Made by a program: the position numbers and the translations under genes. This document shows positions 45,755 through 63,621 of a stretch of 64,000 nucleotides of DNA, one piece after another. The DNA comes from Candidatus Magasanikiibacteriota bacterium. GTDB lineage: Bacteria > Patescibacteriota > Patescibacteriia > Magasanikbacterales > UBA922. The notes under the pieces were generated by a model. It searched no databases. It had not been told where the DNA came from and saw only the letters and a program-made list of their open reading frames with translations. How positions within the stretch are numbered: position 1 is the first letter of the stretch; each line of letters starts with the position of its first letter. The stretch is from NCBI GenBank assembly GCA_052033375.1, contig JBPOJQ010000003.1, positions 10,503-74,502 of the forward strand, written 5' to 3'.

Positions 45755-45895
45755 TTGTATATACTATTGTATACATTTTTGTTATATTTGTATATACTAT
45801 TCTATACAAATAGGCATCTGAACGTGCCCCCATCAGGGGTCTACCCTTGACAAAAACCGTATAATTGGTAGTATTTGTATATACAAATCTATACT
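45755..45895. promoter_or_regulatory. Three copies of a 21-bp palindromic operator-like motif TTGTATATAC-N5-TATAC(A/T), with inverted half-sites TGTATA/TATACA
   Basis: Copies lie at 45755-45775, 45788-45808 and 45875-45895. The first two are 33 bp apart centre to centre. The third overlaps the leader or first codons of the HTH gene. Confidence 0.55.
45847..45874 (+). promoter_or_regulatory. Sigma-70-like promoter for the HTH gene
   Basis: -35 TTGACA at 45847-45852, a 16-nt spacer, and -10 TAGTAT at 45869-45874. The third operator copy lies immediately downstream. Confidence 0.45.
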
Positions 45896-46285: not shown

Positions 46286-46330
46286 TGCTATACTAGAAAA
46301 GGATATTCGCGTGTTCTTTTTTCAAACACA

Positions 46331-46371
46331 ATTCCTAACATATACAGATTTCATTTTCCTAATATAAACGG
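46331..46371. repeat. Inverted repeat (10-bp arms TATACAGATT, 21-nt AT-rich spacer) upstream of the GC-rich lipoprotein gene
   Basis: tatacagatt...aatctgtata, perfect arms. Confidence 0.6.
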
Positions 46372-46437
46372 AATCTGTATACGCTAGGAGACGCCTAGTC
46401 GTACGATCTTTTCAACCTACCAAAAAGGGACCCCCCC

Positions 46438-47328
46438 ATGCTTCGCTCGATGTTTCTGTGCATCTTCCTCTTCCCGTTCATGAGCTGCGACATCACCATC
46501 CCGAAAAGCGGGAAAGTGATCCGAGGAACCTATCACAGTGCCGCAGACACCACCGGCGGCGAGGACACTGCCCCAGTCGACGTGTCTACGTCGACGGAGG
46601 CTGATGGCACCTCTGTCACCACTCCCCAGGACGTCGGCACCTCGACGGCGACCGACACCACCAGTACCTCGCTCGGTGAAGACACCGCCGACTCTCATGA
46701 CACCGAGAATCCGGTACCACCGACTCTCCGCGTCTGCAGCACAGACGGGGAGTGCATCGACGAGTACCCGAACAACGGGTTCGTCTGCGACGACGACGGA
46801 CACTGCACGCACCCGTCCTTCTCCTGCGAGACCGACATCGACTGTCCTCCGGACAAAAATGTCTGCAACGGCATCAAGGTGTGCCTTGATCGAAGCTGCT
46901 ACCTGACCGAAAACCCTGACTGCGATGATGGGAATCGCTGGACAGGCGACTTCTGCAGTCCAGCAGACGGCTGTGGACACTACAACATCGAGTGCACGGA
47001 CGACCAGGGCTGCGGGGAGGACGAGTACTGCGATACCGAAAGCAGGCGTTGCGAACCGATCGGCGCATGCGATAGTCCGGACGACTGCGATGACGGAAAT
47101 GCGTGCACCTATGATCGGTGTACGCTGACCGAGTGCTCAAACATACCTATCGCATGCGCCGACTGGGATCCGGACACCATGGATGTCTGCGACCCGACGT
47201 TGATGTGCCTCTTTACCGAGGGGTGCACCACGAACGCGAACTGTGTCGACGATGACTTCTCAACCGAAGACGTCTGCGATGACGGTTTCTGCAGGCACAT
47301 CTGCAAGGACGGTGAATGCCCTCCTTGA
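46438..47328 (+). CDS. Cysteine-rich secreted lipoprotein with Myxococcus-type cysteine-rich repeats (GC-rich island 2)
   Basis: Lipobox FMSC with Asp at +2 (CDIT). Asp/Thr-rich linker. Repeated CDDGNxCTxDxC spacing: DCDDGNRWTGDFCSP, DCDDGNACTYDRCTLTEC, and others. Very GC-rich. SD AAGGGA upstream. Confidence 0.65.
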   Translation: MLRSMFLCIFLFPFMSCDITIPKSGKVIRGTYHSAADTTGGEDTAPVDVSTSTEADGTSVTTPQDVGTSTATDTTSTSLGEDTADSHDTENPVPPTLRVCSTDGECIDEYPNNGFVCDDDGHCTHPSFSCETDIDCPPDKNVCNGIKVCLDRSCYLTENPDCDDGNRWTGDFCSPADGCGHYNIECTDDQGCGEDEYCDTESRRCEPIGACDSPDDCDDGNACTYDRCTLTECSNIPIACADWDPDTMDVCDPTLMCLFTEGCTTNANCVDDDFSTEDVCDDGFCRHICKDGECPP

Positions 47329-47382
47329 GGGCGTAGTGGTGGGTGAAGACACCTAAAGAGGATCCCACTACTGGGTCATGCG

Positions 47383-47430
47383 CGCCACACCAGCGCGCAT
47401 GACCCACTTCAATCTATTTTGCAATTTGCA
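47383..47430 (+). terminator. Rho-independent terminator
   Basis: Perfect 13-bp stem gggtcatgcgcgc/gcgcgcatgaccc with a 7-nt loop, then acttcaatctattttg. Confidence 0.6.
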
Positions 47431-47557
47431 GAAATACTACCTGTTGTATATCAAAGCTATGTCCACATACTACAACACGCACTATTTCTGCGCATTGGAA
47501 AACTGAAAAGACACGGTGTTTTTTCAGACAAGACGACTCACCCAACAGAGGAACACA

Positions 47558-48285
47558 TGTGGCGCATTGCTCTTTCTTTGGTCATCATGTTACTCGTGGC
47601 CTGCGACATCACGGACGGTGAATCATACGAGTCCCTCTCGATACACAGAGAGGATGTCACAGACACATCGAGTGACGGTGTACTCCAGCCAGCAGATGAC
47701 ATCATCCTCGAACATGGGCTCATGCGTGTCGAGAAAATCGACACTGCTCTTAGCCATCTATTCACCCCCGACACCACGTCTGATTCCACATCTGATGTAC
47801 AGGCACCCGACACTGCCGTACCAGACGAAATCGAGGTACTGTTCACAGAGACTATCCCCTGTACAGAGGACTGGCACTGTGCACCTGGCAAAGAGTGCAC
47901 TCCTGATGGACTCTGCATCACACAGCTCGTGTGGATCGCTGTCATTACAGGGTCCGACGGCTCTCATCCGCCAGTACTGGACCACAGCGGAGAGGAAGTC
48001 ACACTCTGGTATGGACGTGAACCATGGACAGAGACACATCAGGTTCCCTACACAGGATGGCTCCCGCTCGCAGAACTCTGCGAGAGTGGGATTGAAATGG
48101 AACTCCGGAATCCGTCTGACGACGGGTATCCATATGGCGAAGGATGTGTGACTGATTTCAAGAATCTGACACCCTACCTATTCGCCAAGCGACTGGAGTT
48201 CACCATCCATGAGAGCGGTACTGGAGACATGTGTCCAGAGATGCTCCACATCGCTCGAGATCAACTACCCTGCGACAAGGACTGA
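47558..48285 (+). CDS. Secreted lipoprotein of the same family, with the shared C-terminal LWYG module (GC-rich)
   Basis: Lipobox LLVAC with the same CDIT continuation. SD AGAGGAA 5 nt upstream. The C-terminal VTLWYGREPWTETH aligns with KVKLWYGNHTEPETY of the 60165-60902 gene. The ORF-track start at 47419 is AT-rich leader. Confidence 0.6.
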
Positions 48286-48298
48286 CGCATCCGGAGAG

Positions 48299-48375
48299 TG
48301 ACGCACGATACACCGCGTCGCTCTCCGGCCCACACACTTTCGAACTACTCATATTGAGTGGTTTTTTGTTATAAA
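48299..48375 (+). terminator. Terminator region: a GC hairpin (14-bp arms, one mismatch) followed by an AT hairpin and a T-run
   Basis: ccggagagtgacgc...gcgtcgctctccgg, then actca-tat-tgagt ggtttttt. Confidence 0.5.
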
Positions 48376-48529
48376 AATACTTATGTATATTCTGGAGAAA
48401 CCTACGACATCGACATCACAAACTCCGCTTGGACACACGTCCATCTATCTGATGCTGATGGTTTGTCTAGTGTACACAAAAATCCACACCGAAAAGGTGT
48501 GGATGTTGCTACTATACTTTTTTTCTACA

Positions 48530-49705
48530 TTAGACTCTTACTGAAGAAAATAATGGTGATTTTTTTGCTAATATACCTCGATATACACCTTCTGTCTTTT
48601 CTACAATATGTTCCCATTCATACTTCTCATAAATAATTGCACGATTCTGCTTACCTACCTTCATTCGATCTTCTTTCTTCAATTTCATAAATTTCTCAAG
48701 TCTGGACACCAGCGAGTCTACATCATTTTCTTTGAAAAACATTCGCTCATCTCCAATAATCTCTCTATGCTCTGGAATTGAGGAAAGTAATACTGGAATT
48801 CCATGGCTCATCGCTTGAAGTACTGTAATTGGCAAACCTTCATTTATTGACGGGTGTACGAGCGCACGCGCATGCGCATAGAGCTCATTGAGTGCTTCCC
48901 CAGACTGAAAATCAGTAAAAATTACATCATTCATAGTCGCTGCCGAAATATGCAGACTCTGAACATATGAATCAGTATATGCCGCCCCACCTACGATAGC
49001 CAATTTGAGCGACTGAATTGTTTTATTCTTTCTATTTCTTTCTTTTAATTTTTTGAATGCTTCAATCAAAATATGTGCTCCCTTATGGGGTACCAATCGA
49101 GAAATCATTACTATGTATCTACCAGACGCGAGACCAAATGATGTGATATGTGATTTTGTTTTTACCTTTGATGGCATATCGACCCCATTCGATATATACG
49201 TCGTATCTACACCATACTCAACTTTCAGATACTCGTGCAAACTTTTTGACACACAAATAGTGTCGTGTGCAAACGTATATGCAGCTCTCTCACCCAATCG
49301 AAGAATCGCCCTAGCAAACCAGTTCCATTTTTGATGAAAACGATCCAGTGAATGGAGCGTGACTATTACCCGCATCCGTGGTCTGAATATTCGAGGAATC
49401 CACGCGAGAAGAGCTGGGCCAACCCCGTGATAATGGATGACATCATAGGATGCAAAAAGTGCATGCATCGTCGAAGTGAAGACATGCACAATAGTATCAA
49501 GATGTTTGGTCTTAATCGTTCTAGTATGTACACGCTGAACACCCTCGACAGTATCAGTGCCTGTGCTACCGGTATACCATTTTCTCGAGTATACGGTCAC
49601 TGTGTGTCCACGTTCAGCAAGACGAACCGAAAGATCGTGAACGTGTCTCTCAACGCCACCGTAGACTGCGGGAATACCTTTTTGACCAATCATGGCTATA
49701 CGCAT
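48530..49705 (-). CDS. Glycosyltransferase family 4
   Basis: MRIAMIGQKGIPAVYGGVERHVHDLS...GHTVTV in the N-terminal domain. C-terminal GT4 motifs LAIVGGAAY...EGLPITVLQAMSHGIPVL. Confidence 0.75.
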   Translation of the reverse strand: MRIAMIGQKGIPAVYGGVERHVHDLSVRLAERGHTVTVYSRKWYTGSTGTDTVEGVQRVHTRTIKTKHLDTIVHVFTSTMHALFASYDVIHYHGVGPALLAWIPRIFRPRMRVIVTLHSLDRFHQKWNWFARAILRLGERAAYTFAHDTICVSKSLHEYLKVEYGVDTTYISNGVDMPSKVKTKSHITSFGLASGRYIVMISRLVPHKGAHILIEAFKKLKERNRKNKTIQSLKLAIVGGAAYTDSYVQSLHISAATMNDVIFTDFQSGEALNELYAHARALVHPSINEGLPITVLQAMSHGIPVLLSSIPEHREIIGDERMFFKENDVDSLVSRLEKFMKLKKEDRMKVGKQNRAIIYEKYEWEHIVEKTEGVYRGILAKKSPLFSSVRV

Positions 49706-49854
49706 ATGCTACAGATATACACAGTTATATCGGATTAACGAACATCGTAGTATAACACAGACAAGAGCTTTTGTCAAGCATGGTTTTCTCTCTGGTATAT
49801 GATATAAAATTGCTTATTTTAGCCATTTTTTTACTTCTTCTCCCCTATACGTTC

Positions 49855-51705
49855 TTAGCGTACAGTACCACCTTTTGCACCCCCTCGCGCATCTGTGTTG
49901 AGCGATGCATCAAAAGCACCGAGCGCACGCGTGAAAGAGTAGCCGATATACGAATCCCACCCAGAAATTTCGACACTCTGTATCAAAACTGGAGTGGTGC
50001 CGCGATCAGCCTCAGTCGGTGTCAAACTAAGCTCAAAAAATACACCTGCATTCGAGTGTGCTGAAATAGTTCCCATATTCCAACGTAGTGTGCGTGTCGA
50101 TGGAGTATATACTGGTGCTGAACCTTGGGTAACACTAGTTTTTCCAGTCCACACGACTCCAGGAGACAATCGCGCAGTAAATATACCCTCAGTCACATTA
50201 CTCGTTGTGTTACGTATAGTGAATAGACCTGCATACTTGGTCTCTTTTCCCACTTCAGGAGGAAGAGGTCCTCTACCCAATTGATCCCCCTCATCCGTAT
50301 AATAACGAATTTCACCAACCAATGTGACGTCAGTACCAACTTTGATTGATTCAGGTACTGAGACCGCCTCTACTGATACTTCTGGTGCTAATAGCACATT
50401 CCCTTTAAATCGAACCGTGGGCTGAAGTACGATATTGGTACCTGCATCAGATGTGGAAATAACTGGAACTAATAAGGTGATGACTCGTGATTCTCCGGAT
50501 GGTATTGAACGCAAATTAGTGTGACGGACTGAATTAAGTGTCACGGTATTCTGAGCTATCGAGCCTGCATTTGCTCGTGCTGCTTCTGACACATTTACTG
50601 TTCCTCGTGGAAACGACACCTCAATCACTCCTCCCGACAACTCTACAGTACCTCTATTGAAAATATTCACTAATAGCCTTCCTGTCTCACCAGGTTTGAG
50701 AGATGAAATCGCTGAATCCCACGCAGTGGTTATCTGCACTTCAGGATGTCCAATTGTCATGGTTTTTTTCACGACTGATTGTGGAATCGTCTTCCCCTGC
50801 ACGATAATTGCTGGTGCAAGTTCGATTGTATACCCGGACTGTGGGAGAGTGTCTGAGATATGCAATGATCCCCGTAATGTCACCGCCACATTCGGACGTA
50901 ATTCAGATACTGACCACGCATGCTGGTCTCCCAGACCTTCAGTCGTTGAGACATGTTCTACGACTCCAATTGTCTGGAACGGTGCAAGTGGAAATACGAT
51001 ATCTCGCAATATCTCATCGCCTGTGTTGGTAAGCGTGATAGAAAAAGGAATATGTGAATCTTCAATCACCTTATCCTGGATGTCGATTGATGCATTGAGA
51101 AGTGAACCACGCAAAAATATGATATGCGGACCTACTTTTTCTTCAACATGATTCTTTCCGTCCTGTCGATATGCGATCGTTGCATGAATATGATCTTCTA
51201 CATTGGGTGTTCCATAAAATCTTCCTGCCACTGATACACTCCCTTCTTCACCCACTCCAATAGTTCGAAGATTGAATGTCTGCGTTTCACTTTCGAATTG
51301 CTCTTTCGGTTCAGCTGCACCGACAATAAAACCATCGGGCAACTCGACAGATAATCGCACATCAGCCAAACGCACACTGCTCTCATTTGTATAGTTAATG
51401 GTATATGTGACATATTCACCACTCAATACCCTATCCTTCGAAGGGACGACAGAGAGATACACCAACTCGGTCACTGTCGGATTATACGTACTCCACCCAA
51501 GCAGTGCAGCACCAATGACTATGAGTGTTGCCACCAATGACATGTCGAATAAAAATAATTTTCTTGCATGTGAAAACTGGAGATGATACCGCTTTTGATA
51601 ATGCATCTCGGCAAAATGAATTGGTGATGCTAAAAATGCGAAAAACCATCGATGTGGAGCGTGGAATAAATGGTGCTTAGTGAGATGTGTTTCAACGAAT
51701 TTCAT
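49855..51705 (-). CDS. Membrane-anchored beta-rich repeat protein (DUF11/CARDB-like), hypothetical
   Basis: N-terminal transmembrane segment LVATLIVIGAALLGW, then about 550 aa of beta-strand-rich Thr/Val/Ser repeats with no catalytic motif. Confidence 0.4.
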   Translation of the reverse strand: MKFVETHLTKHHLFHAPHRWFFAFLASPIHFAEMHYQKRYHLQFSHARKLFLFDMSLVATLIVIGAALLGWSTYNPTVTELVYLSVVPSKDRVLSGEYVTYTINYTNESSVRLADVRLSVELPDGFIVGAAEPKEQFESETQTFNLRTIGVGEEGSVSVAGRFYGTPNVEDHIHATIAYRQDGKNHVEEKVGPHIIFLRGSLLNASIDIQDKVIEDSHIPFSITLTNTGDEILRDIVFPLAPFQTIGVVEHVSTTEGLGDQHAWSVSELRPNVAVTLRGSLHISDTLPQSGYTIELAPAIIVQGKTIPQSVVKKTMTIGHPEVQITTAWDSAISSLKPGETGRLLVNIFNRGTVELSGGVIEVSFPRGTVNVSEAARANAGSIAQNTVTLNSVRHTNLRSIPSGESRVITLLVPVISTSDAGTNIVLQPTVRFKGNVLLAPEVSVEAVSVPESIKVGTDVTLVGEIRYYTDEGDQLGRGPLPPEVGKETKYAGLFTIRNTTSNVTEGIFTARLSPGVVWTGKTSVTQGSAPVYTPSTRTLRWNMGTISAHSNAGVFFELSLTPTEADRGTTPVLIQSVEISGWDSYIGYSFTRALGAFDASLNTDARGGAKGGTVR

Positions 51706-51837
51706 AGATATCTATCTCAAAACTTAAAACTCAAAATTCAAAACGAGAACTACAAATGTACAACTCCTTATTCTTCAATGTAATAATACTTGATCCAAGC
51801 ATATTTGCAACTTCTGCAAGCTCATTTTGTTTTTATT

Positions 51838-53847
51838 TTACAATGCCCCTTCACTCAACGTCACAATTTCATCTATTCCATCAAAATCAATATCAAGTGC
51901 TCGCACCTCTACCCCTGGCTTGAATACTGTAGAGTATGCGTCAAATGATTTGTATTTTTCTTTTCCCTCAAGTGAGAATACTCTGACTGTCGGTTTTCCT
52001 CCATATCCTTTTCCTGCAATAATTTCCTGCACCCCATCTCCATCCACATCTCCAGCAGCTACTGACACCCCGCCTGTAAACGATGTTTCAAAAGCTGTAA
52101 ACGAATGTATTTTTTTATACTCATATCCAAATAAAGTGATCGTCGGACGTGCTCCTGCTCCTGACCCAACAATGAGACGGGATGGTACTTTTTCTGTTGC
52201 CTTGGTCAGACTAATGTGATACCCGCCTGTATAGGTATTTCCAAATGGAAAAAAATCATTTGCTAATGTATTCCCATGACGATTGTACGACCGAATTGGT
52301 TCTCGAAAACCTGCGCTCGGCGCTGTATATATTTCATAAAAGCCATCATTATTCAAATCACCCACTGCCACATTCAATGAACCTGTATAATTTGCACCAT
52401 ACGGCATCAATCTGAATAAAATCTGGCCATCATCTCTCCATGCTTGAATTTTATTTCCCATCACCACAATCAATTCTTCAGCTCCATTAAAATCCAAATC
52501 AATGTGAGCAATCTGAGCACCACCTTTGTGTTTCTCCTCAAAAACGAAGAATCCATTTTTTGCCCGCTCGCCATCTGCTCTGAAAAAACGAGCAAAAAAA
52601 CCATTGGTAAACACAATCTGTTTGAGCGTCTGAAATGTCTTGAGTAATATAATTCCATCTTTTGGCGCAAGTGTGACTTCTGCAACAATTGCTCCATTAT
52701 TTATTTCTGTATCCTGCGTACCATGTATTTTTTCATATTCACCACCGAGAGAGACACCTCGCGTCTCGCCTGTACTATTGACAACCGCAATTCCATTTTC
52801 AAATGTTCTACTCCACACGTCTTCGGCATATTTGGATTTTCCTGTCTGCGAGCGTGCAGATCCGAGCGGATCGCCAAGCGATACTCCATATTCATCATAA
52901 TTCCACAGCCGTGCATGATCCTTGTCCCCATAATCAAACGAATAGTAGCCATTTTCAAGCAATGCTGAAGTAAGACCAAAACGCATACTGCGATAATTTT
53001 TTGCATTCTCGACATTTCCTGTATTTGCATTGATAATATTCACTGTTGGTCGATTTCTTGTAAGCTGATTCTCCTGATACACAGACATAATTTCTGACCA
53101 TGGATGATTCTGAAAATTTTCAATCATCTTTCCATTGAGTGATTCAGTATACCCTCGCGTATGCCCATTACCGATAATAATAGGATCACCCGGAGCCTGT
53201 GCGCGAGTATCCTCATATAATTTTTTCATTCCTTCATACCATTTCTGGTCAATACCTGTATCTGGAGACCCGTTGCGATCATAATCTACCCGAGTACCTG
53301 AAAACCATGTGAGATCTTTCCACGCATTATCATAAAATACACCGTCCCATACTCCAGATCCCAAAATTTCTGTAGCAACAAAATGAGACAAGTACTCATT
53401 GAAATTCTTTCCATTATGTTCTGGGGCATTTTCAGCTAGATTGAGCATTGTCGTGCCCTGCCAAAAACTATATGCAGCACCCAGGTCGTTTGCCAGATAC
53501 CACTCGGAAGAAATTCCTCGCGCCAAACGATCACGCATCTTACTCGGACCCCCGAGCGCATCATTTCGAATTTCTTGGGGAGTAATGTATGCAAGCAAAA
53601 TAATCCCCGGATTCAAGCGACGCAATTCACGGAGACGCTCGGGATTGGTCACTTGATTTTCCATATCAAGGACCAAGAGATCCCATTTTGCAAGTTCACG
53701 CATCTCAGCATCCGTAATACTCCATTTCAAAAAATAATTTGCAGTTTTTGGATACGTCTCAGTATATGCAACAGACACACTCACTACAGTGCCATATGCG
53801 CACAGTCCGAGAAACAAAATTGATTGTATGAAACGCGCCAATGTCAT
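51838..53847 (-). CDS. Secreted glycoside-hydrolase-like (GHL) domain protein with C-terminal FG-GAP/VCBS repeats
   Basis: Signal peptide. The N-terminal about 400 aa (WDGVFYDNAW..., GNGHTRGY...) resemble the putative glycoside-hydrolase GHL families. The C-terminus carries calcium-binding FG-GAP-type repeats: DLNNDGFYEI, GDVDGDGVQEII, DIDFDGIDEIV. Confidence 0.45.
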   Translation of the reverse strand: MTLARFIQSILFLGLCAYGTVVSVSVAYTETYPKTANYFLKWSITDAEMRELAKWDLLVLDMENQVTNPERLRELRRLNPGIILLAYITPQEIRNDALGGPSKMRDRLARGISSEWYLANDLGAAYSFWQGTTMLNLAENAPEHNGKNFNEYLSHFVATEILGSGVWDGVFYDNAWKDLTWFSGTRVDYDRNGSPDTGIDQKWYEGMKKLYEDTRAQAPGDPIIIGNGHTRGYTESLNGKMIENFQNHPWSEIMSVYQENQLTRNRPTVNIINANTGNVENAKNYRSMRFGLTSALLENGYYSFDYGDKDHARLWNYDEYGVSLGDPLGSARSQTGKSKYAEDVWSRTFENGIAVVNSTGETRGVSLGGEYEKIHGTQDTEINNGAIVAEVTLAPKDGIILLKTFQTLKQIVFTNGFFARFFRADGERAKNGFFVFEEKHKGGAQIAHIDLDFNGAEELIVVMGNKIQAWRDDGQILFRLMPYGANYTGSLNVAVGDLNNDGFYEIYTAPSAGFREPIRSYNRHGNTLANDFFPFGNTYTGGYHISLTKATEKVPSRLIVGSGAGARPTITLFGYEYKKIHSFTAFETSFTGGVSVAAGDVDGDGVQEIIAGKGYGGKPTVRVFSLEGKEKYKSFDAYSTVFKPGVEVRALDIDFDGIDEIVTLSEGAL

Positions 53848-53850
53848 ACA

Positions 53851-54933: not shown

Positions 54934-54940
54934 AAATCTA

Positions 54941-56422
54941 TTAGGTAATCTCGGTATCGATTTTATATTTATTTGGTCTGAAATGAGTATAAAATGCATC
55001 TCCTTCGCGTTCATGGCGATACAGCACATGCGCCGATATCGCCAACATCAATGGCACCCACATACGCGCTGAATAATATTGGGTATTAAACAGTTGAAAA
55101 AATAAAGGGGCGATAATAAGACACAGACACAAATGTGCAACCGCGCGAGCCTCGAGAGTATATTCTTTTGATTTGATACGCGCGTATACCGAGGATATAA
55201 GTATACCAATAAATAACCCAAATGTAGCGACCCCTACGATCCCCTGTTCGGATAAAATTTTCATGAGAATACTATGTGCATCAATTGGATCGCCAAATTC
55301 ATATGTAAAATAACGTACATCTTCCAATCGTCCAACGAAGGTCCCCACTCCTTGTCCAAACAATGGATGTTCTAGAAAAAAATTCCAGGCGACTTCTGTC
55401 AGCGTGATACGTGCACTATTCGAAGACGAGACGACAGCGCTCTGCAAAAGCATACCCATATATACCCCCGCAGGAATAAAAAATATAAGTATACCAATCA
55501 TATAGCCTCTTATTTTTTTCCATTTGATATGTGATCGAAATATATACAGTGCAAGTACTCCCTCGACAATAAGCGTAAGCCAACTTGCCCGAGAAAAGGT
55601 AAGAAACGCAGTAACGCCACAGATAATACTCGCACAAATATACACAAGCCTGCGCACATCAGTCTTTGCAGCATAGGCAAGATATATTGCAATTGGCAAC
55701 GCCACCACCAGCACTTCGGCAAGCAAAATATGGCCACTAAAGACATCATAATTAAATGGTTGCCAACCGAATACTGAAATCGGCACGGCACGCGCAATGC
55801 TTCCGCTTCCCCCGACGACAAAAGATAGTAGCCCCAATAGTGCACCAATAACACCCATCCACACTACCACTTCGAGTGCATGGGATAGTGTTTTTTTGGT
55901 ACGTATAATATTTGCACCCAAAACCACGTATGCAATATACACAAATACGATAAATCGTATGGTGTAAGAAATACTCGGCTGCAATTCCCATCCTCCCACA
56001 TTCATCAATGATACTGCGGCAGATGCTACAAACAATCCATACCATGTAATCTCTGGAAGATTAATCCGATGTTTTTCTCCATATAACCATTTGCGTATTA
56101 AATAGAATATATATGAGCCAACCATAAGTAGTGCCCACATATCGACCATTGGCGCATACAATTCGAATATTTCAGAAGATGATCCAAGTATTCCACGAAA
56201 TATGTCGGCATGAAATTCCCACCCAATAAGTGGATAGAGAATAAGCAGAATATAGAGGCCTGCTTCCAGATGGTACGAAAAAAATAACATAACCAAACAT
56301 ATCAACAGTCCCAAGACCGCTATATTTCCCTTGAGCATCAACGCAAGTAGTATCAGAGCTATGAGCGCACCCACTCCAAATATTCCTGAAAATTTTGATG
56401 TTTCAGACTGAGGAATACTCAT
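54941..56422 (-). CDS. O-antigen ligase/polymerase-like (Wzy_C) polytopic membrane protein
   Basis: About 12 transmembrane helices with a Wzy_C-like loop FLTFSRASWLTLIVEG. Confidence 0.55.
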   Translation of the reverse strand: MSIPQSETSKFSGIFGVGALIALILLALMLKGNIAVLGLLICLVMLFFSYHLEAGLYILLILYPLIGWEFHADIFRGILGSSSEIFELYAPMVDMWALLMVGSYIFYLIRKWLYGEKHRINLPEITWYGLFVASAAVSLMNVGGWELQPSISYTIRFIVFVYIAYVVLGANIIRTKKTLSHALEVVVWMGVIGALLGLLSFVVGGSGSIARAVPISVFGWQPFNYDVFSGHILLAEVLVVALPIAIYLAYAAKTDVRRLVYICASIICGVTAFLTFSRASWLTLIVEGVLALYIFRSHIKWKKIRGYMIGILIFFIPAGVYMGMLLQSAVVSSSNSARITLTEVAWNFFLEHPLFGQGVGTFVGRLEDVRYFTYEFGDPIDAHSILMKILSEQGIVGVATFGLFIGILISSVYARIKSKEYTLEARAVAHLCLCLIIAPLFFQLFNTQYYSARMWVPLMLAISAHVLYRHEREGDAFYTHFRPNKYKIDTEIT

Positions 56423-57501
56423 ACACTGGTGGTAGTAATCTTACGATATATGTCCTCATACGCCTTTGACATAGTCTCTACGCTCCCCCTTTTCTCCACC
56501 CACCGCTTTCCTTGGACTGCTATTTTTTTTGCCAGAATTGGATTCGAGATATATTCTCGGATGGCTTGTGCGAGCTGTCGACTGTCCTCTGCTTCGACCA
56601 ATACACCATTTTCTCTATCACTAATAATTTCGGGGATACCCCCGACACGGGAAGCGATTACGAGCCGGCCTGATGCCAATGCTTCGAGGATGACGATTCC
56701 CAGCCCCTCCCACCGCGAAGGAGCGAGCACTATATCTGCGTCTGCATATGCCGCGGCAGCATTCTCGGTTGCTGGTTTCCACATCACACGATCACCCAAT
56801 CCTAATTCTTTGGCATACTGCATGAGTTGTTCTTTTTTTTCTCCCTCACCCACTATTGTCAACATGCATGGGATATCAGTAATTTTTTGTAGTGCCTCAA
56901 GCGCACGCGCGTGTCCTTTTTGTTCTACCACTCTTCCAATCATGAGTAATTTATATGGCGATGCAAAAGATGCGGGGGGGATTTTGGCAAAATGCGCTAA
57001 TTCAATACCATGCATAATCACTCGAGTATGTTCGGGTGCAATCCCATACGCAATTTTCATGTATTCTCGGACAGCATGTGACGGCGCCGTGTACACGCGA
57101 GAATAATTTTTCATTACACGTTTGATTCTTCCCCAGAGCCACGATTCTTGTAAATTAATATTATGTTCAGTTGTGACTACAGGAATATCCACTGACTTTG
57201 CAGCCAGTCTACCCCACAAATCTGCACTAAAAAGATGTGTATGTACTACATCAGCCCCCATACCACGGAGCATCTGTGCCAGTTTTTTTCTGCGACTCAG
57301 ATACCCGATGTGATCTAGCGGAAACACGCTACATGCAACAGTGGATGGTAATTCCCGAGCAAGCGGACGATCATCCCAGAGTGTAATCACTGACTGACGA
57401 ATATATTTTGATGATATGTGTTTTGCAAGCGATACCACAAAACGCTCGGCTCCTCCGAAACCAAGTCTAGGAATAATATGCACGACGTGTATTTGTTTCA
57501 T
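56419..57501 (-). CDS. Glycosyltransferase family 4
   Basis: IHVVHIIPRLGFGGAERFVVSLAKH, and the C-terminal EGLGIVILEALASGRLVIASRVGGIPEII. Confidence 0.75.
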   Translation of the reverse strand: MKQIHVVHIIPRLGFGGAERFVVSLAKHISSKYIRQSVITLWDDRPLARELPSTVACSVFPLDHIGYLSRRKKLAQMLRGMGADVVHTHLFSADLWGRLAAKSVDIPVVTTEHNINLQESWLWGRIKRVMKNYSRVYTAPSHAVREYMKIAYGIAPEHTRVIMHGIELAHFAKIPPASFASPYKLLMIGRVVEQKGHARALEALQKITDIPCMLTIVGEGEKKEQLMQYAKELGLGDRVMWKPATENAAAAYADADIVLAPSRWEGLGIVILEALASGRLVIASRVGGIPEIISDRENGVLVEAEDSRQLAQAIREYISNPILAKKIAVQGKRWVEKRGSVETMSKAYEDIYRKITTTSV

Positions 57502-57547
57502 ACAATTTCATCTAAGTATATCATATGCAGAAGAAAAATTAAAAAGA

Positions 57548-57582
57548 AAAAATAACAAACAAAAAACCGCATAGTGCGGTTA
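57548..57582 (-). terminator. Rho-independent terminator of the GC-rich lipoprotein gene
   Basis: aaccgca-tag-tgcggtt hairpin. On the minus strand it is followed by ttttttgtttgtt. Confidence 0.6.
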
Positions 57583-57592
57583 TTCTAGCGTG

Positions 57593-57640
57593 CCCTTCTA
57601 CTCTATCTTCAAGATAATACTTGAATTCAGAGTAGAGGGG
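57593..57640. repeat. Inverted repeat (12-bp arms, one mismatch, 24-nt AT-rich spacer) at the left edge of GC island 3
   Basis: cccttctactct...agagtagagggg, with a nested ttcaag/cttgaa palindrome in the spacer. Confidence 0.55.
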
Positions 57641-57766
57641 AGGAAGCGGTCGCTGTAGTAGCGAGCGCACTTCCCCCAGTTTGTGTGATTGTCTTCGAAC
57701 ATTCACCTACAGAAGCGAATCACACGTTCACTTCGAGATGCTCCTGCAGTCGTCGCAGAAGAAGTT

Positions 57767-59815
57767 CTAGGGTGCCGCGGGGCATCCCAGGTCGTTGTCA
57801 CCGTTCTCGTCGGAGAGCCACAGGTTGCCCGGCGGAGCGCCGTCGCATGCCTGCGGATCACGAACCTCGAAGTCGTTCGCCTTCGTGACACCATTGACCA
57901 TGACGGTCAGGGTGGACTTCGAGGGGAACCCCGGGTTGCAGTCCCAGAACAAGTTCGTGCTCGGACGGTTGACGGCGATGTCGACGCCCCAGCTGCATGC
58001 GAGCGTCTTCGGCAAGGTCCCGTCGAAGGGCATGTTGCCGGAGATCGTCGTCCCGTTGTAGTAGAAATTGACCTGCCAGGTCTCCGACGTGTCGGTCGAC
58101 GAGACCTGCACGCGGACACCTTCCACGTGCTGGCAGACGAGCTCGACGCAGGTGTCGTAGGTCAGGGGATTGCTGTCGTTGCAATCCGCGTTGACCGTGC
58201 AGTTCCCCGTCGGCGTGTACACGCAACCCGTCGCCGGATCGCAGGTGTCGGTGGTGTTGGAGTTCCCGTCGTTGCACACCACCGCGGTGTGCTGCACCCC
58301 CATCTCGGGATCGCACGCGTCGATGGTGCAGGCGTTGTTGTCGTTCGTCGTCACCGCCATGTGTTGGCAGGTGTTTGCCGAACAACTGTCGATCGTGCAG
58401 ACGCTTCCGTCATCGCACGTGAGCGGCGTACCCGCGACGCACCCGGAAGCCGGGTTGCACGTCTCGGTGCCGTTGCATGCGTTCCCATCGTCGCAGACGA
58501 TCGCGACGTGTGTGACCGCGCCGGTCTCGGGATCGCACGCGTCGATGGTGCAGGCGTTGTTGTCGTTCACCGGATCGACCTTCTGCGCCATGCACTGTCC
58601 ATTGACGGGATTGCACGTGAGGCCTCCGCAGAGGTCCCCGCCGCAGTCCTTCTCGACGTGGGTGACCACGCCGGTCTCGGGATCGCACGAATCGATCGTG
58701 CAGTTGTCCCCGTCGGTCAGGACCTTCCAGCCCGTCTCGACGCACACATGTTCCGCGCACGCCATCTCGGTGACGCACGCGGTGGTGGGCTCGCAGTCGT
58801 CGTCGTCTGCGCATTCGCACGCCTCGGACGGCATGAACGCGTACTCGCAGACGCCCTGCAAGTTGCAGGTGTCGGTGGTGCACGTGTCGCCGTCGTCGCA
58901 CTCGGCCCCCTCACCTTCCGAATCGCAGTACACGAGACACGAGAGGTTCGGCAGATCCCAGGGCAACACGTCGGGGTAGAGGTCTCCGTCGCAGTCGACG
59001 TCGCAGACGTCGCCCATGCTGTCCTCGTCCATGTCCTCCTGCCCCGCGTTCTTGAAGCGGGGGCAATTGTCCTCGCCCTCGCAGATGGGCATCACCAGCG
59101 CGTTTCGCGGCATCGAGACGGGGGCAGCTTCGTCGCAGAAGCTGTCGTTGTCGTCGTCGGTGTCGCAGACGTCGCCCCAATCGTCGCCGTCCAGGTTCGC
59201 CTGGTCGGGGTTGACGTTGTCGGGGCAGTTGTCGACGGGGTTCAAGACCCCGTCGCCGTCGACGTCGTTGTCGCAGACGTCTCCGACGAAATCGTCGTCC
59301 AGGTTCGCCTGGTCGGGGTTCGGATCGGCGGGGCAGTTGTCCTCGCCCGCACACATCTCGACCTGACCCGGATGGGATTTCTCCCACCCGTCCTCGTCGA
59401 GCCAGGGGTCGCAGAAGCCGTCGTTGTCGTTATCGTTGTCGCAGACGTCTCCGAAGAGATCCCCGACCACGGTGACGTTGCCGTCGGCACCGGCCAGGAC
59501 CTGGTCCAGGTTCGCCTGGTCGGGGTTCGGATCGGCGGGGCAGTTGTCGACGGGGTTCAAGACCCCGTCGCCGTCGCGATCGGTGTCGCAGACGTCGCCC
59601 ATGCCGTCGCCGTCGGTGTCCACCTGGTCGGGGTTGTACCACCCCAAGCAGTTGTCGCGGTTGTCCGCGACGTCGTCACCGTCGGTGTCCGCGGCCTTCG
59701 TGAAGCCGAGCCCGCCGTCGTTGCCGGATTCGTCATACGCACACGCCGCCATGAACCCCATGGCAAGGGCACCCAAGATGCAGAGCACCCGGGTGTTGTT
59801 GTTCTTCAGACGCAT
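57767..59815 (-). CDS. Secreted lipoprotein with about 8 thrombospondin-type-3 calcium-binding repeats, many Myxococcus-type cysteine-rich repeats and the shared C-terminal module (682 aa)
   Basis: Signal and lipobox ...GFMAAC. TSP3 units DTDGDGMGDVCDTDRDGDGVLNPVDNCPADPNPDQANLD are repeated. Cysteine-rich units DNNACTIDACDPETGAVTHVAIVCDDGNACNG are repeated. SD GGAGGAAGG lies 4 nt upstream. Very GC-rich. The C-terminal LFWDCNPGFPSKSTL aligns with TYWGCNDGLPSKRDI of the 60165-60902 gene. Confidence 0.7.
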   Translation of the reverse strand: MRLKNNNTRVLCILGALAMGFMAACAYDESGNDGGLGFTKAADTDGDDVADNRDNCLGWYNPDQVDTDGDGMGDVCDTDRDGDGVLNPVDNCPADPNPDQANLDQVLAGADGNVTVVGDLFGDVCDNDNDNDGFCDPWLDEDGWEKSHPGQVEMCAGEDNCPADPNPDQANLDDDFVGDVCDNDVDGDGVLNPVDNCPDNVNPDQANLDGDDWGDVCDTDDDNDSFCDEAAPVSMPRNALVMPICEGEDNCPRFKNAGQEDMDEDSMGDVCDVDCDGDLYPDVLPWDLPNLSCLVYCDSEGEGAECDDGDTCTTDTCNLQGVCEYAFMPSEACECADDDDCEPTTACVTEMACAEHVCVETGWKVLTDGDNCTIDSCDPETGVVTHVEKDCGGDLCGGLTCNPVNGQCMAQKVDPVNDNNACTIDACDPETGAVTHVAIVCDDGNACNGTETCNPASGCVAGTPLTCDDGSVCTIDSCSANTCQHMAVTTNDNNACTIDACDPEMGVQHTAVVCNDGNSNTTDTCDPATGCVYTPTGNCTVNADCNDSNPLTYDTCVELVCQHVEGVRVQVSSTDTSETWQVNFYYNGTTISGNMPFDGTLPKTLACSWGVDIAVNRPSTNLFWDCNPGFPSKSTLTVMVNGVTKANDFEVRDPQACDGAPPGNLWLSDENGDNDLGCPAAP

Positions 59816-59868
59816 TTGGCCTTCCTCCGTAGTGTGAGGCCGTTGAACTCCAGCAGTGACACTGTGTC

Positions 59869-59938
59869 TCAGCTAGAGGGTGGCTATCGATACAAGATAT
59901 GTTGCATATATCAGTATCTGCACCCATCCTCTAGCTGA
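59869..59938. repeat. Inverted repeat (15-bp arms, one mismatch, 39-nt spacer) upstream of the 57767-59815 gene
   Basis: tcagctagagggtgg...ccatcctctagctga. Confidence 0.55.
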
Positions 59939-60164
59939 ACATAGAACTTATGTGATTATAATGAACATACACACTTGAGAATGATTCTCCAGTGGCGCAT
60001 ACCAGATACCTCTCTAGATATCCGATATGCGTGGACACAATCGTACCAACATATCAAGAAAAGAGTATTTTGTCAATATAATTCTATAAAGTGAATTAGT
60101 GGTGCTCGCGAAAGGAGGCGGCATAGCGTATACGCCATCCTACCCTTCGCGAGACACCCGCCCC

Positions 60165-60902
60165 TCAGTCACATGCGAGCTGTGCCTGCAGGAAGTAGAG
60201 ATCCCCCTCTCCCTTCCCACCGCACGCAGTGTTGGGGACCTCCCATCCGAGATCCGCGGCAAAATAACCGAATGCCTCTGCACCGTCGATCTCGACCGCG
60301 ATATCCCTCTTCGAGGGAAGACCATCGTTGCATCCCCAGTATGTCCCTGGAAACTCCTGGTCCTCTACCGCGAGAGTGAGCATGCCGTTTTCGACGCAGA
60401 GATCCATCTTCCGGATCTCGAAGCTCGAGTTCATGGGATAGGTCTCTGGCTCGGTGTGATTCCCATACCAGAGCTTCACCTTCCCCGGACGCTCTGCGCG
60501 TACGGTGAAATGAGTCACCCGGTGTACACTGGAGCATGCCCCAGTGTCGGGGACGCACTCGTCATCCGTCCAGCGATTCCCATCGTCGCAGTCGATTGCT
60601 CGATTACGACATGTGCCCTGGATGCAGACATCGATCGTGCACATGTCGCCATCATCGCAGGGGTTTCCCTCTGCAATGAACTCCTCGATGTCGCACTCAC
60701 TGGGCGACGCCGGAGGAAGCTCGATCTCGTACCGATCACGGATGACCCGCGAATCAGCATCTTCGACTTCCTGGAGTATATCCTCGATCCCCGTCGACGT
60801 ATCGACCTGGATCATGGTCGTACCCCTCTGTCTCATGTCCTCGATGCACGCAGTCGTAATCACGAAGTAACAGACGCACAAACGAAACATCTTAGAAAGC
60901 AT
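60165..60902 (-). CDS. Cysteine-rich lipoprotein, a family member with the shared C-terminal module
   Basis: Start at ATG 60902 (MLSKMFRLCVCYFVITTAC lipobox) with SD GAGGGGA upstream. The ORF-track start is a GTG 12 nt earlier. Motifs NPCDDGDMCTIDVC and DCDDGNRWTDDEC. C-terminal LWYG...YWGCNDGLPSK. Confidence 0.6.
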   Translation of the reverse strand: MLSKMFRLCVCYFVITTACIEDMRQRGTTMIQVDTSTGIEDILQEVEDADSRVIRDRYEIELPPASPSECDIEEFIAEGNPCDDGDMCTIDVCIQGTCRNRAIDCDDGNRWTDDECVPDTGACSSVHRVTHFTVRAERPGKVKLWYGNHTEPETYPMNSSFEIRKMDLCVENGMLTLAVEDQEFPGTYWGCNDGLPSKRDIAVEIDGAEAFGYFAADLGWEVPNTACGGKGEGDLYFLQAQLACD

Positions 60903-60990
60903 GTGTCCCCTCACGTATTGGTATGAACTGGCGTGTAGAATTCCTCTACCGTTGATATACCATCATCATATGGATATACCCAAGGTAATG

Positions 60991-61017
60991 GAATTTAAAA
61001 AACCCGTGGATACGGGT
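60991..61017. terminator. Bidirectional rho-independent terminator
   Basis: aaaaaa-cccgt-ggat-acggg-ttttt. Confidence 0.55.
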
Positions 61018-61365
61018 TTTTCCCGCGTAAAAGTCGATCTTCTCCGCGGCTCATTTTCGTAACCCGCTTCATAGTAAAGCAGATACACCATTGTACCATA
61101 CCACACACAGGTGTTGTATGACTGGGTCAGCATAGTATGCCTATTCTGACCGTGTTATTTCCCACATCTCTTTACCAATACTCACTAGTCGCTCACTGTA
61201 ATCTGAGTTCTGAATTTTGATAAAGATATGTTGGAATGGGAGAGGGGCTCGTCAATGAATCGTTTGCACGATCCACTGAACGCTAGGCCCCGCTCCCGCA
61301 ACTTGTACCATAGTGAACCCTGAGTCTTGTTGCTAAACTACTCAGGGTACGTACCGATATGTCCT

Positions 61366-62373
61366 CTACTCCTCGGGGCAGTAGAAGTTGGTCCACCGGT
61401 TCAGGTCGCAGACGAGCCAGCAGCCGTGCTGCTCGGGCGTCGTCCCGACGAATACGTCCGCAGGCGCGTAGTTGTAGTGCGCGTCTGCGTTCGTGACACA
61501 ACGGTCCTCGCCGTTGTCGTTTCCGACAACGAAGTCAGACCCGACCTGGTTCACGAACTGCTGGACATTGAACAAGGCAACCTCACCCTCACAAATCGTG
61601 AGGGTGTGGCAGGAGCCAGCACCGTCCGGGCAGGACATCCAGATGGCCTCGGGCCACCCGAGGGAGCCCGCACCGCCAACCGACGCCTGAAAGCGCCAGT
61701 TCTGCTTCACCGTGAAGGTGAAGCACTCCGGCGAACCCTGATCTTCGCAGCGGTTCGAGGAGTTGTTGCACTCCTCGCCATCCCCGCAGTCGCCATCCTC
61801 GACGCAGCAACCGGGGATGGGCGTGTTGTAGCACACACCACTCACCGTGTTGCGCCAATCTTCCGTGCAGATGTCTCCATCATCGCACGTGAAGGTTGCG
61901 TCATGGCAGGCGCCCCACTGGCCCCAGTGGCCGGCGGAGCACGTCCGCTCCTGCGTCCCCGTGTTACCGGTGCCGCAGGACTTCGACTGCTCGGACCCAT
62001 CGACGCACTCGTCGGGGTCTGCGCAGGTGCCCCACTGGCCCCAGTGGCCGGTGGTGGCGCACGTCCTCGTCTTCGTCCCGCGACCATTGAGGCCGCAGGA
62101 CACCTGCTCGGTCGCGCCGACCGAGCACTGCTGGGTGGGGGGGAACGGCGTGCTGTCGCACACGTTCCCTCTGCCGTCGCCGTCCGCGTCCGCCTGATCC
62201 TGGTTCGGATCGGCGGGGCAGTTGTCGGCGTCGTCCTTGACGCCGTCGTTGTCGAAGTCGGTGTCGGTGTCGGTGCAGTCGTCGCAGCCCTCCTCGGGCT
62301 GCTTCTCCCAGTCGCACGCGACCGCGACGATGATGAACGACGACGACAGGACGAACATGGTGATGTTCTTCAT
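61366..62373 (-). CDS. Lipoprotein with TSP3 repeats and a cysteine-rich C-terminal region (family member)
   Basis: Lipobox VAVAC with Asp at +2. TSP3 units DFDNDGVKDDADNCPADPNQDQADADGDGRGNVCD. Cysteine-rich C-terminus. SD GGAAAGGAA upstream. GC-rich. Confidence 0.65.
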   Translation of the reverse strand: MKNITMFVLSSSFIIVAVACDWEKQPEEGCDDCTDTDTDFDNDGVKDDADNCPADPNQDQADADGDGRGNVCDSTPFPPTQQCSVGATEQVSCGLNGRGTKTRTCATTGHWGQWGTCADPDECVDGSEQSKSCGTGNTGTQERTCSAGHWGQWGACHDATFTCDDGDICTEDWRNTVSGVCYNTPIPGCCVEDGDCGDGEECNNSSNRCEDQGSPECFTFTVKQNWRFQASVGGAGSLGWPEAIWMSCPDGAGSCHTLTICEGEVALFNVQQFVNQVGSDFVVGNDNGEDRCVTNADAHYNYAPADVFVGTTPEQHGCWLVCDLNRWTNFYCPEE

Positions 62374-62459
62374 GACTATTCCTTTCCCCCTGTCTGAGGG
62401 GGACTCTCGAGTGATCTCGCCGGAAACCTTCCGGCGAACATTGTAACGCTATGGTACTT

Positions 62460-62512
62460 CCGCAGCGTGTAGAGAACATATTTTTGTAAAAACACACTCT
62501 CTACACACTGCG
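62460..62512. repeat. Inverted repeat (16-bp arms, one mismatch, 21-nt AT-rich spacer) upstream of the 61366-62373 gene
   Basis: ccgcagcgtgtagaga...tctctacacactgcgg. A second, perfect 7-bp inverted repeat tacagaa-tttc-ttctgta lies at 62531-62548. Confidence 0.6.
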
Positions 62513-62749
62513 GATTTGTAAGGTACATGTACAGAATTTCTTCTGTATATGAAGTAGTGTCCACCTGTCTACTCCCTATACAATAGAAATACGTATCATA
62601 ATTTTTCTCACCTTATTCCCCACATCCATATGATATGAAGAGTAAGTTGAGCTCTGGAGAACGAGAAGGTGCCACCCTTCATACGTTTTCCAGAGCGATC
62701 GATTCCCGAGCCCTCATTTTCCTCCGAAGAGGTATTGAGGAGCTCCTGA

Positions 62750-63577: not shown

Positions 63578-63621
63578 CTTCACGGCATTTCTCCTTCCCC
63601 TCCGTGAGGAGGGGACGTGAC

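Follow-up and report, generated by a model that had tools for sequence, protein, structure and literature searches.

What are four long inverted repeats doing beside the GC-rich genes of a polysaccharide-biosynthesis locus? The question is raised by a 64-kb stretch of DNA from a Candidatus Magasanikiibacteriota bacterium (the window, by which we mean the whole stretch that was analyzed). The locus runs at 38-44% GC, and set into it are two groups of GC-rich genes, one at 46438-48285 on the plus strand and the other from 57767 to the window end on the minus strand. The repeats, which we call IR1 to IR4 (for inverted repeat), lie in the spacers beside these genes. An earlier note on the window had picked them out and offered three explanations for them: binding sites for a dedicated regulator, relics of miniature inverted-repeat transposable elements (MITEs), or structured RNA in leaders and trailers. 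Our answer is the last of these. The repeats are probably sequence-unrelated, cis-acting mRNA stem-loops in the multi-hairpin untranslated regions (UTRs) of GC-rich genes for cysteine-rich lipoproteins, and what carries this answer is their positions, their folding in excess of chance, and the compensatory changes in IR1 and IR2. That RNA rather than DNA is the functional form we hold with moderate confidence, because the hairpins lie either downstream of a predicted promoter and ahead of the ribosome-binding site, or past a stop codon and ahead of a terminator, because structure is conserved without sequence, and because each hairpin is unique. Hairpins of unique sequence would not fit a single DNA-binding or recombination protein.

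The four repeats exist, and they exceed chance. Our own scan for ungapped arms with at most one mismatch recovered all of them (Table 1), and an independent repeat search placed all four within the 13 longest short-range inverted repeats of the window. IR2 and IR3 are exactly as the earlier note had them, in coordinates and in arms. Its IR1 ended at 46371 and so missed the right arm, and its IR4, given as 62460-62512 with arms of 16 nucleotides (nt), is really 62459-62514 with arms of 17 nt. Each is the best repeat of its own spacer when measured against 300 dinucleotide-preserving shuffles of that spacer (P = 0.007 for IR1, 0.013 for IR2, and 0.000 for both IR3 and IR4); the suspicion that arms this long are unlikely by chance was right, all four being significant at P <= 0.013. 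Shuffling all 16 spacers gives an expectation of 0.57 repeats with arms of at least 12 nt and 0.05 with arms of at least 14 nt, against 14 and 5 found. Comparable repeats beyond the four lie at 47417-47502, 62651-62696, 60105-60153, 59997-60030 and 43701-43754. The proposed enrichment beside GC-rich genes is also there: of six long-loop repeats (arms of at least 12 nt, at most one mismatch, loop of at least 17 nt), five fall in the 2.1 kb of spacers beside GC-rich genes and one in the 3.1 kb of other spacers, a bias for which our own binomial estimate is P ~0.04.

What had been described as AT-rich spacers of 21-39 nt between the arms are not true loops. They are partly self-complementary, with inner helices and apical loops of 4-9 nt, and each repeat becomes a near-continuous hairpin of 48-70 nt. 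Complementarity that runs on through the spacer to so small a loop argues for a hairpin and not for two protein half-sites. Folded as single hairpins, these elements score z = -4.4 to -9.2 against shuffles. IR1 (-19.6 kcal/mol, z -6.7) continues to a 9-nt loop; IR3 (-36 kcal/mol, z -4.8) has two inner helices; the hairpins at 47417-47502 and 62651-62696 reach -24.2 kcal/mol (z -4.4) and -26.3 kcal/mol (z -4.5), respectively. On the sense strand, IR4 forms 26 consecutive pairs, including five G.U, around a 4-nt loop (-37.2 kcal/mol, z -9.2), whereas on the antisense strand its stem is interrupted (-27.9 kcal/mol). IR4 shares this preference for the sense strand, which comes through G.U pairs, with the hairpins at 59995-60032 (-22.5 against -10.7 kcal/mol antisense) and 60100-60158 (-40.4 against -29.6 kcal/mol), and with a hairpin at position 7640 of a related contig, L003.

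The excess extends to whole spacers. On the sense strand, the z-scores of the seven spacers that adjoin GC-rich genes run from -4.3 to -11.3, more negative than the antisense scores in five and tied with them in two, while most other spacers in the window score between +1 and -2.7. Folding, one of the checks put forward in the earlier note, thus places both the repeats and all seven of these spacers far beyond their shuffles. The structured exceptions are 39552-39692 and 43383-43754, which are terminator or leader spacers, and 45578-45896, the promoter region of a gene for a helix-turn-helix (HTH) protein. The second of these is a 372-nt spacer upstream of a gene for a protein of 1229 amino acids (aa), one that is not markedly GC-rich, and on the gene strand it reaches z -9.0. 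At its start is a palindrome with 26-nt arms (43701-43754), which immediately follows the stop codon of the gene that lies downstream of the extracytoplasmic function (ECF) sigma gene. Long structured leaders are therefore not exclusive to GC-rich genes. A cmscan search of 44000-64000 against Rfam (E <= 1) gave no family at gathering score and two sub-threshold chance matches, snoR26 and mir-5014, the latter on IR4 with 25 bits against a gathering score of 101.

Where the hairpins stand relative to the genes can be read from the 682-aa lipoprotein gene, which has IR3 in its leader and IR2 in its trailer. A predicted sigma-70-like promoter opens the leader, and besides the hairpins listed in Table 1 a further one in the fold covers the GGAGG ribosome-binding site. 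In L003, two other GC-rich genes have equally good predicted promoters (TTGACA-17-TATAGT and TTGACA-17-TATACT), which sit ~45 and ~180 nt upstream of those genes' own long hairpins. IR4, like IR3, has a predicted sigma-70-like promoter upstream of it in its 5' leader, and for the leader hairpins in general strong, conserved promoters are predicted at distances of 110-200 nt. From such matches the transcription start sites can be predicted, and the 5' elements would be transcribed. At the other end of the 682-aa gene, the 3' UTR is ~200 nt long, and IR2 lies 127 nt 3' of the stop codon and 13 nt ahead of a canonical terminator. The relatives that reach the site all have IR2 between stop codon and canonical terminator as well; it must, then, be transcribed.

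The relatives came to us by two routes. The 682-aa protein has one close homolog among 5.8 billion proteins, encoded on contig L001, which is part of L003 (CAYSXR010000001.1), and L003 proved syntenic with the window. The neighboring glycosyltransferase led to the other syntenic relatives, namely L016, L017, L018/L019, L020, L022 and L023. The closest named homologs of this glycosyltransferase belong to Candidatus Magasanikbacteria, of the Patescibacteria or candidate phyla radiation (CPR). L003, the one GTDB genome with an ortholog of the 245-aa gene, is titled 'uncultured Gammaproteobacteria bacterium', which is probably a mislabel: its locus is syntenic with the window, and the named close homologs of the window's glycosyltransferase are all labeled Candidatus Magasanikbacteria or Patescibacteria. 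The search with the 245-aa protein of a neighboring GC-rich gene returned, apart from the protein itself, a single homolog. Exact-sequence look-ups of proteins of the window yielded nothing of use: three proteins and a further one with a 100%-identical match had no entry, and another led only to a 2.1-kb contig that falls within the window.

Wherever a relative reaches the site, a GC-rich gene stands beside the glycosyltransferase, and a homologous 3' UTR comes after it. In a five-genome alignment of this 3' UTR, RNAalifold finds 66 pairs with 91% of cells paired. Compensatory double changes occur in 14 of the pairs, against 5.1 +/- 1.7 in column shuffles (0/500) and 1-5 in slid controls. IR2 itself is kept in all seven genomes that reach the site, and 93.3% of the cells of its helix are paired. 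Compensatory change affects five of the 17 pairs, where shuffles give 1.8 +/- 1.0 (4/500 reach it) and slid controls 0-1, and the covariation score of the helix is 0.196 against 0.095 in shuffles (0/500). Its apical loop ranges from 6 to 25 nt across genomes, and one G.U pair is invariant in all seven sequences. In L018, CTCTAC/GTAGAG has become CTTCAAC/GTTGAG, with pairing kept.

IR1 tells a similar story. Its bracket architecture recurs unchanged in L016 and L017 (from a 5-bp base through a bulge, one C-G pair and another bulge to a long helix), and the base carries three compensatory swaps in these relatives (U-A>C-G, C-G>U-A and U-A>C-G), with more in the apical part. In L018 the leader is recognizably homologous, and at the position of IR1 it has an unrelated hairpin with 13-bp arms. 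The hairpin at 60105-60153 is kept in L003 with one compensatory pair. IR3 has its sole ortholog in L003, with identical arms and four substitutions, all of them apical, an outcome with a chance P of ~0.12. No ortholog was found for IR4, at whose place L003 has a different gene, of 588 aa, with a different long leader hairpin, and none was available for the hairpin at 47417-47502. A search of JGI metagenomes for more IR3 and IR4 orthologs, with a 22-mer from the conserved leader and a profile of the C-terminal domain, gave no match.

Between the window and L003, paired UTR positions evolve more slowly than unpaired ones: 5.6% of them differ, against 14.3% (Fisher p = 2e-4, on a minimum-free-energy fold of the window sequence only). 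The UTRs as a whole are 93-94% identical in nucleotides and the adjacent coding sequence 82-88%; for the 682-aa gene, the 3' UTR is 94% and the leader 92.8% identical, against 87.6% for the coding sequence. Conservation is higher in the UTRs than in either the coding sequence or the flanking genes. Farther afield, the 3' UTR can still be aligned between genomes in which the amino-acid identity of the C-terminal domains is down to 37-43%.

Table 1. Repeats, hairpins, predicted signals and genes of the locus (window coordinates)
Feature	Position	Strand	Details
IR1	arms 46339-46350 + 46372-46383	+	12-nt arms, 1 mismatch; spacer 21 nt; extendable to 46333-46389; ungapped-arm scan
IR1 hairpin	46333-46389	+	between HTH_17 gene (ends 46285) and lipoprotein gene 46438-47328; 48 nt before ATG 46438
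Hairpin, 32-nt arms, 81% complementary	47417-47502	+	~54 nt upstream of second GC-rich lipoprotein gene (ATG 47557)
IR2 and its hairpin	57593-57640	-	12-nt arms, 1 mismatch; spacer 24 nt; outer stem 11-12 bp, inner stem 6 bp, 6-nt loop; last in 3' UTR of 682-aa gene
Structured 3' UTR of 682-aa gene	57555-57766	-	post-stop hairpins, then IR2, then intrinsic terminator
Intrinsic terminator after IR2	stem 57565-57581 + T-run	-	terminator scan
IR3, 70-nt hairpin	59869-59938	-	15-nt arms, 1 mismatch; spacer 40 nt; in 5' leader of 682-aa gene, 53 nt upstream of ATG 59815
Predicted sigma-70-like promoter	60076-60048	-	TTGACA-17-TATGTT with TG; consensus match, 110 nt upstream of IR3
Promoter + ~225-nt leader of 682-aa gene	59816-60076	-	
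Hairpin, 16 bp, sense-specific	59997-60030	-	leader of 682-aa gene; fold 59995-60032
Second leader hairpin	59972-59994	-	leader of 682-aa gene
Hairpin directly after stop codon of 245-aa GC-rich gene	60105-60153	-	without T-run
Short palindrome GGTAGAGGAATTCTACACGCC	60931-60951	-	another TAGAGG; 28 nt upstream of ATG of 245-aa gene; identical in L003
IR4 and its hairpin	62459-62514	-	17-nt arms, 1 mismatch; spacer 22 nt; in leader of 335-aa gene, 85 nt upstream of ATG 62373
Hairpin, 13-nt arms + inner helix	62651-62696	-	54 nt downstream of stop codon of coiled-coil gene 62750-63577
ECF sigma gene	44966-45577		
HTH_17 gene	45897-46285		
GC-rich gene, 296-aa cysteine-rich lipoprotein	46438-47328	+	IR1 in leader
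682-aa lipoprotein gene	57767-59815	-	65% GC; GC at third codon positions 0.89; Pfam TSP_3 (thrombospondin type 3) and Dicty_CTDC cysteine-rich repeats; flanked by IR2 and IR3
GC-rich gene, 335-aa cysteine-rich lipoprotein	61366-62373	-	IR4 in leader

Several observations weigh against stem-loops of the mRNA and deserve to be set out together. For IR1, the hairpin at 47417-47502, IR3 and, by a small margin, IR2, the antisense strand gives the better fold, by 3-9 kcal/mol, so the strand asymmetry is not consistently for the mRNA strand. Paired positions evolve more slowly on the antisense fold too (p = 0.004), and structure at the level of DNA is therefore possible. The transcription start sites are consensus matches only. 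IR3, with one ortholog whose arms are invariant, gives no covariation information, and IR4 is without any ortholog from which covariation could come. Hexamers resembling -35 and -10 elements overlap IR1 (TATACA-16-TATAAA); if they were a real promoter, the left arm would go untranscribed. These hexamers are not conserved in L016, and the lipoprotein gene probably shares a transcript with the HTH gene, in which case IR1 would be intercistronic. Finally, a role in stability or processing is argued by analogy with other bacteria.

A regulator that binds DNA is the natural competitor. The arms would be half-sites of a dimer, either the HTH_17 protein or a factor under ECF control, acting on the GC-rich genes; we think it unlikely that the repeats are operators of this kind. 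Both arms of IR1 carry TATACAGAT, which is common to palindromes in the HTH gene's own promoter, and TATACARAT occurs 11 times in the window against 1.9 expected. Six of these copies surround the HTH gene, as two palindromic pairs in its promoter region and two copies in the arms of IR1. The promoter palindromes behave as operators, and the promoter-like hexamers just described lie inside IR1. But the half-sites of IR1 are inverted in orientation relative to those of the HTH promoter, and in L016, L017 and L018 a hairpin is kept at the orthologous place with neither the TATACAGAT motif nor TATACARAT. In this genome IR1 may, from its motif content, double as a binding site.

The HTH_17 promoter region (45754-45894) has features of its own. 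A perfect 16-bp palindrome, ATTTGTATATACAAAT, lies at 45873-45888 between the predicted -10 element and the HTH_17 ATG, and at 45786-45811 there is a second copy, split by an 8-bp spacer. L016 conserves the half-sites of the HTH promoter but has a different 8-bp spacer, which is how operators behave. These palindromes probably form an autoregulatory operator.

For IR2, IR3 and IR4 a protein site finds little to attach itself to. The earlier note had seen a TAGAG(G/A) core in one arm of three of the repeats, and the core is present as described, but sharing of this kind is near chance: a 5-mer common to three of four random arms turns up in about 4% of trials. The window contains 59 copies of TAGAGR, against 43 expected; in the island spacers the motif is ~5-fold enriched by our own count. 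GTAGAG faces outward in IR2 and inward in IR4, and in L018 TAGAG has been replaced by TTGAG. We rejected TAGAG as a binding motif for its near-chance sharing, its inconsistent orientation and its loss in L018. Nor did the idea of sites for the ECF sigma, its anti-sigma partner or the HTH protein find support at IR2-IR4, which have no common motif beyond that 5-mer. An ECF-type motif, GTAAC-N15-18-CGTC, occurs only at 45582-45606, before the sigma gene, and at one intragenic site, with none near the repeats; among promoters it is thus confined to that of the sigma gene, and IR2, for its part, sits in a 3' UTR. Half-sites kept around a free spacer, the mark of an operator, are not what the relatives show: the arms of IR2 vary, with five of 17 pairs compensated, and the arms of IR1 differ in L016 and L018. 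The spacers, moreover, are self-complementary, which protein sites do not require.

Two further sequences in the window may be recorded here. The GTAAC-N16-CGTC match at 45582-45606 (minus strand) ends 3 nt before the ECF sigma ATG, a position that would give a leaderless or nearly leaderless, autoregulated sigma transcript. The short palindrome GGTAGAGGAATTCTACACGCC, upstream of the 245-aa gene, folds weakly (-5.8 kcal/mol, z -1.2), and it is doubtful that it is a hairpin at all.

If not operators, could the repeats be scars? Decayed MITEs that carried or accompanied the GC-rich genes would be expected to look much like this, with terminal inverted repeats of 12-17 nt, an AT-rich center, a length of 48-70 bp and compositionally foreign neighbors, and the relatives do hold MITE-like palindromes in the same spacers. 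We nonetheless consider this origin extremely unlikely, and the MITE part of the earlier note falls away. An all-against-all BLAST of 12 spacers gave only matches of 9-16 nt with E > 0.04, and a covariance model of IR2 found only the orthologous IR2 sites in 128 kb of window and related loci, even at E <= 10. No direct repeat of at least 3 bp abuts any of six repeats examined for target-site duplications. Polymorphism for presence and absence was not seen, IR2 being in seven of seven genomes and the IR1 hairpin in both L016 and L017. Compensatory evolution at the same site speaks of selection on pairing, not of decay. The truly mobile palindrome of these genomes, GTCATTYCGAGCG, is carried by some relatives and not by others, and it is missing from the window.

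That palindrome belongs to a MITE-like family of ~100 bp in the relatives, of the form GTCATTYCGAGCG...GAGGAATCTTTCC...CGCTCGGAATGAC, also written GTCATTYCGAGCG...CGCTCGRAATGAC. Copies lie at 13341-13442, 19221-19331 and 19670-19784 of L003 and at 1486-1580 of L018, and in both contigs one copy comes directly after the terminator that follows IR2. The family is absent from the window, L016, L020 and L023. A second small palindromic repeat, AAACTTAAAACTCAAAATT..., occurs at 158-270 and 9760-9810 of L003, and one of its copies interrupts the L003 spacer that matches 61030-61160 of the window.

A subtler form of the DNA argument makes the repeats hairpins or cruciforms that bound exchangeable GC-rich cassettes, as attC-like sites or as breakpoints of homologous exchange. 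Divergence is what recommends it. The segment 57552-61027 is 87.7% identical to 9878-13340 of L003, against ~71% for the flanking glycosyltransferase genes, and the two island genes have a synonymous divergence (dS) of 0.19 and 0.60, where genes outside have 1.1-2.1. Recent exchange between lineages would explain so low a divergence, and so would pervasive constraint on the UTRs. The low dS in the island may only reflect extreme codon bias (third-position GC, or GC3, of 0.89), but codon bias leaves unexplained the divergence of unpaired UTR positions (14%), which is far below that of the flanking synonymous sites. For the 682-aa gene, the ratio of nonsynonymous to synonymous divergence (dN/dS) comes to 0.58. 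Homology with L003 breaks off immediately beyond the terminator beside IR2, in L016 the outermost part of the right arm of IR2 and the terminator have given way to a different sequence, and folding shows no consistent strand preference, all of which a cassette boundary would accommodate. Against this, integron attC cores (RYYYAAC...GTTRRRY, searched as a regular expression on both strands of 44-64 kb) gave no match, and no integrase or recombinase was found among the neighboring genes scanned with Pfam and NCBIfam. The gene order beside the glycosyltransferase is unchanged in each of the six relatives that extend so far. The GC-rich arrangement is no recent island, since at least six relatives have it in synteny. 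Each hairpin, too, is different in sequence, and no single enzyme could recognize them all. We regard cassette boundaries as very unlikely.

The genes themselves encode proteins with lipoprotein-type signal peptides and cysteine-rich repeats. GC3 is 0.89 in the 682-aa gene and 0.68 in the 245-aa gene, against 0.33-0.41 in the neighboring glycosyltransferase genes, whereas the spacers between the GC-rich genes are only 42-47% GC and thus host-like in composition. The surface-protein gene region of L003, at 4500-13400, has the same GC3 contrast. The GC-rich gene 62750-63577 (minus strand), like 6247-7182 of L003, encodes a signal peptide, coiled-coil repeats and a glycine-rich C terminus with an aromatic last residue; the ends, ...TAGYRF and ...LGHEF, resemble the signature of an outer-membrane beta-barrel, which would be unexpected in a CPR bacterium. 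In the trailers of two GC-rich genes a 14-mer, GATGTGGGRAATAA, recurs in the same orientation (61152-61165 and 62606-62619, minus strand); it is partly present in L003 and may be due to chance (BLAST E about 1). A gene for a 122-aa 23S_rRNA_IVP protein (PF05635) lies between the 669-aa and 616-aa genes of L017 (5784-6152) and L018 (7451-7819) and is absent from the matching place in the window (51706-51837) and in L016.

The GC-rich genes have also been poorly served by annotation and assembly. Open reading frames on the wrong strand are on record inside them in L018 (3-830 and 1398-1625), L020 (190-606) and L016 (317-1201). The true gene at these places runs on the other strand and is truncated where the contig ends; its product has a C-terminal domain homologous to the one in the 682-aa protein. 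Assemblies tend to break inside the repeat-rich gene of the 682-aa type. The wrong-strand calls may be why protein searches gave few orthologs. A search of the literature turned up nothing useful on the cysteine-rich proteins of Magasanikbacteria or on the stability of S-layer leaders.

Granting that the hairpins act as RNA, they might still act on transcription and not on the decay of the message, as terminators without a U-tract, as attenuators or as pause sites, which would keep closely spaced transcription units apart or permit conditional read-through. Stop codons are followed directly by the hairpins at 60105-60153, 62651-62696 and 47370-47408, none of which has a good T-run. The right arm of IR1 can pair through UAGGA either with the left arm or with a downstream CCUAG, much as an attenuator would, and similar alternative pairings can be drawn for L016 and L018. 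But a T-run follows none of IR1-IR4, and the terminator scan called none of them an intrinsic terminator. Canonical terminators are present where they are evidently needed, at 57565-57581, 60998-61021 and 48342-48364. A leader that carried a stable terminator 50-85 nt ahead of the start codon would shut its gene off unless there were an anti-terminator, and none is evident. On balance an action at the level of transcription seems to us improbable, roughly on a par with operators.

For the stem-loops of the mRNA, then, we can picture the following. The stems would block exonucleolytic decay from either end of the transcript. Alternatively, or in addition, they could serve as processing sites for a double-strand-specific enzyme, for which the long stems of IR3 and IR4 (>20 bp) are the candidates. 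Together, the leader hairpins and the 3' hairpin cluster that ends in IR2 may set the level or the stability of the surface-protein mRNAs. There is a grander version, which we rate as rather unlikely: that GC3-extreme genes and AT-rich, hairpin-dense UTRs form a dedicated CPR expression module, possibly exchanged between lineages as a unit, in which the 3' UTR would be a new cis-regulatory RNA or a source of small RNA and the leader hairpins would co-ordinate the cysteine-rich adhesins as processing or recognition sites.

Why should any of this matter? CPR bacteria are thought to depend on contact with a host cell, so surface proteins matter to them, and to our knowledge almost nothing is known of post-transcriptional control in these organisms. 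Here is a gene set that stands out twice over, by a GC3 of 0.68-0.89 against ~0.35 for the genome and by hairpin-packed UTRs under structural constraint. The hairpins are concrete, testable candidates for elements of mRNA stability or processing, and the ~200-nt 3' UTR is a motif with covariation that is absent from Rfam. On the reading we favor, the repeats would be neither the scars of mobile elements nor the motif of a regulon. The elements are of an ordinary kind, stem-loops in UTRs; it is the setting that is unusual, a CPR genome with surface genes of extreme GC3 and UTRs conserved beyond their coding sequence.

How do they compare with what is known elsewhere? In size (48-70 bp), in terminal inverted repeats and in intergenic location the four resemble MITEs, Correia and RUP elements and repetitive extragenic palindromes (REP) with their mosaic assemblies (BIME). 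Unlike all of these, they are single copies of unrelated sequence, they have no target-site duplication, and they occupy orthologous positions with compensation. Stem-loops that stabilize a message from its 5' side are known from the leaders of E. coli ompA and B. subtilis aprE and from the long leaders of S-layer genes. The likeness is a close one: long leaders (150-300 nt), stable hairpins between a strong promoter and the ribosome-binding site, exported surface proteins, and structure kept rather than sequence. The differences are that in those systems the protective hairpin is at the 5' end or a few nt from it, whereas IR3 and IR4 are internal (it is the hairpin at 59997-60030, not IR3, that comes nearest to the predicted 5' end), and that the host here is a CPR bacterium.

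At the 3' side, the known stabilizers are the 'positive retroregulator' of Bacillus thuringiensis cry and REP elements such as that of E. coli malE-malF, which in this position block 3'-to-5' exonucleases. IR2, too, is a stable stem-loop, accompanied by others in the stretch from the stop codon to the transcript end. It differs in having a separate canonical terminator and in belonging to a 200-nt 3' UTR that is conserved with covariation throughout; and whereas REP is a dispersed repeat, IR2 is single-copy and specific to its locus. Small RNAs derived from 3' UTRs, such as CpxQ and SroC of the enterobacteria, offer the last parallel. There, as here, the last elements of a conserved 3' UTR are a stem-loop, an A/U-rich linker and an intrinsic terminator, and the 3' UTR is more conserved than the coding sequence upstream of it.

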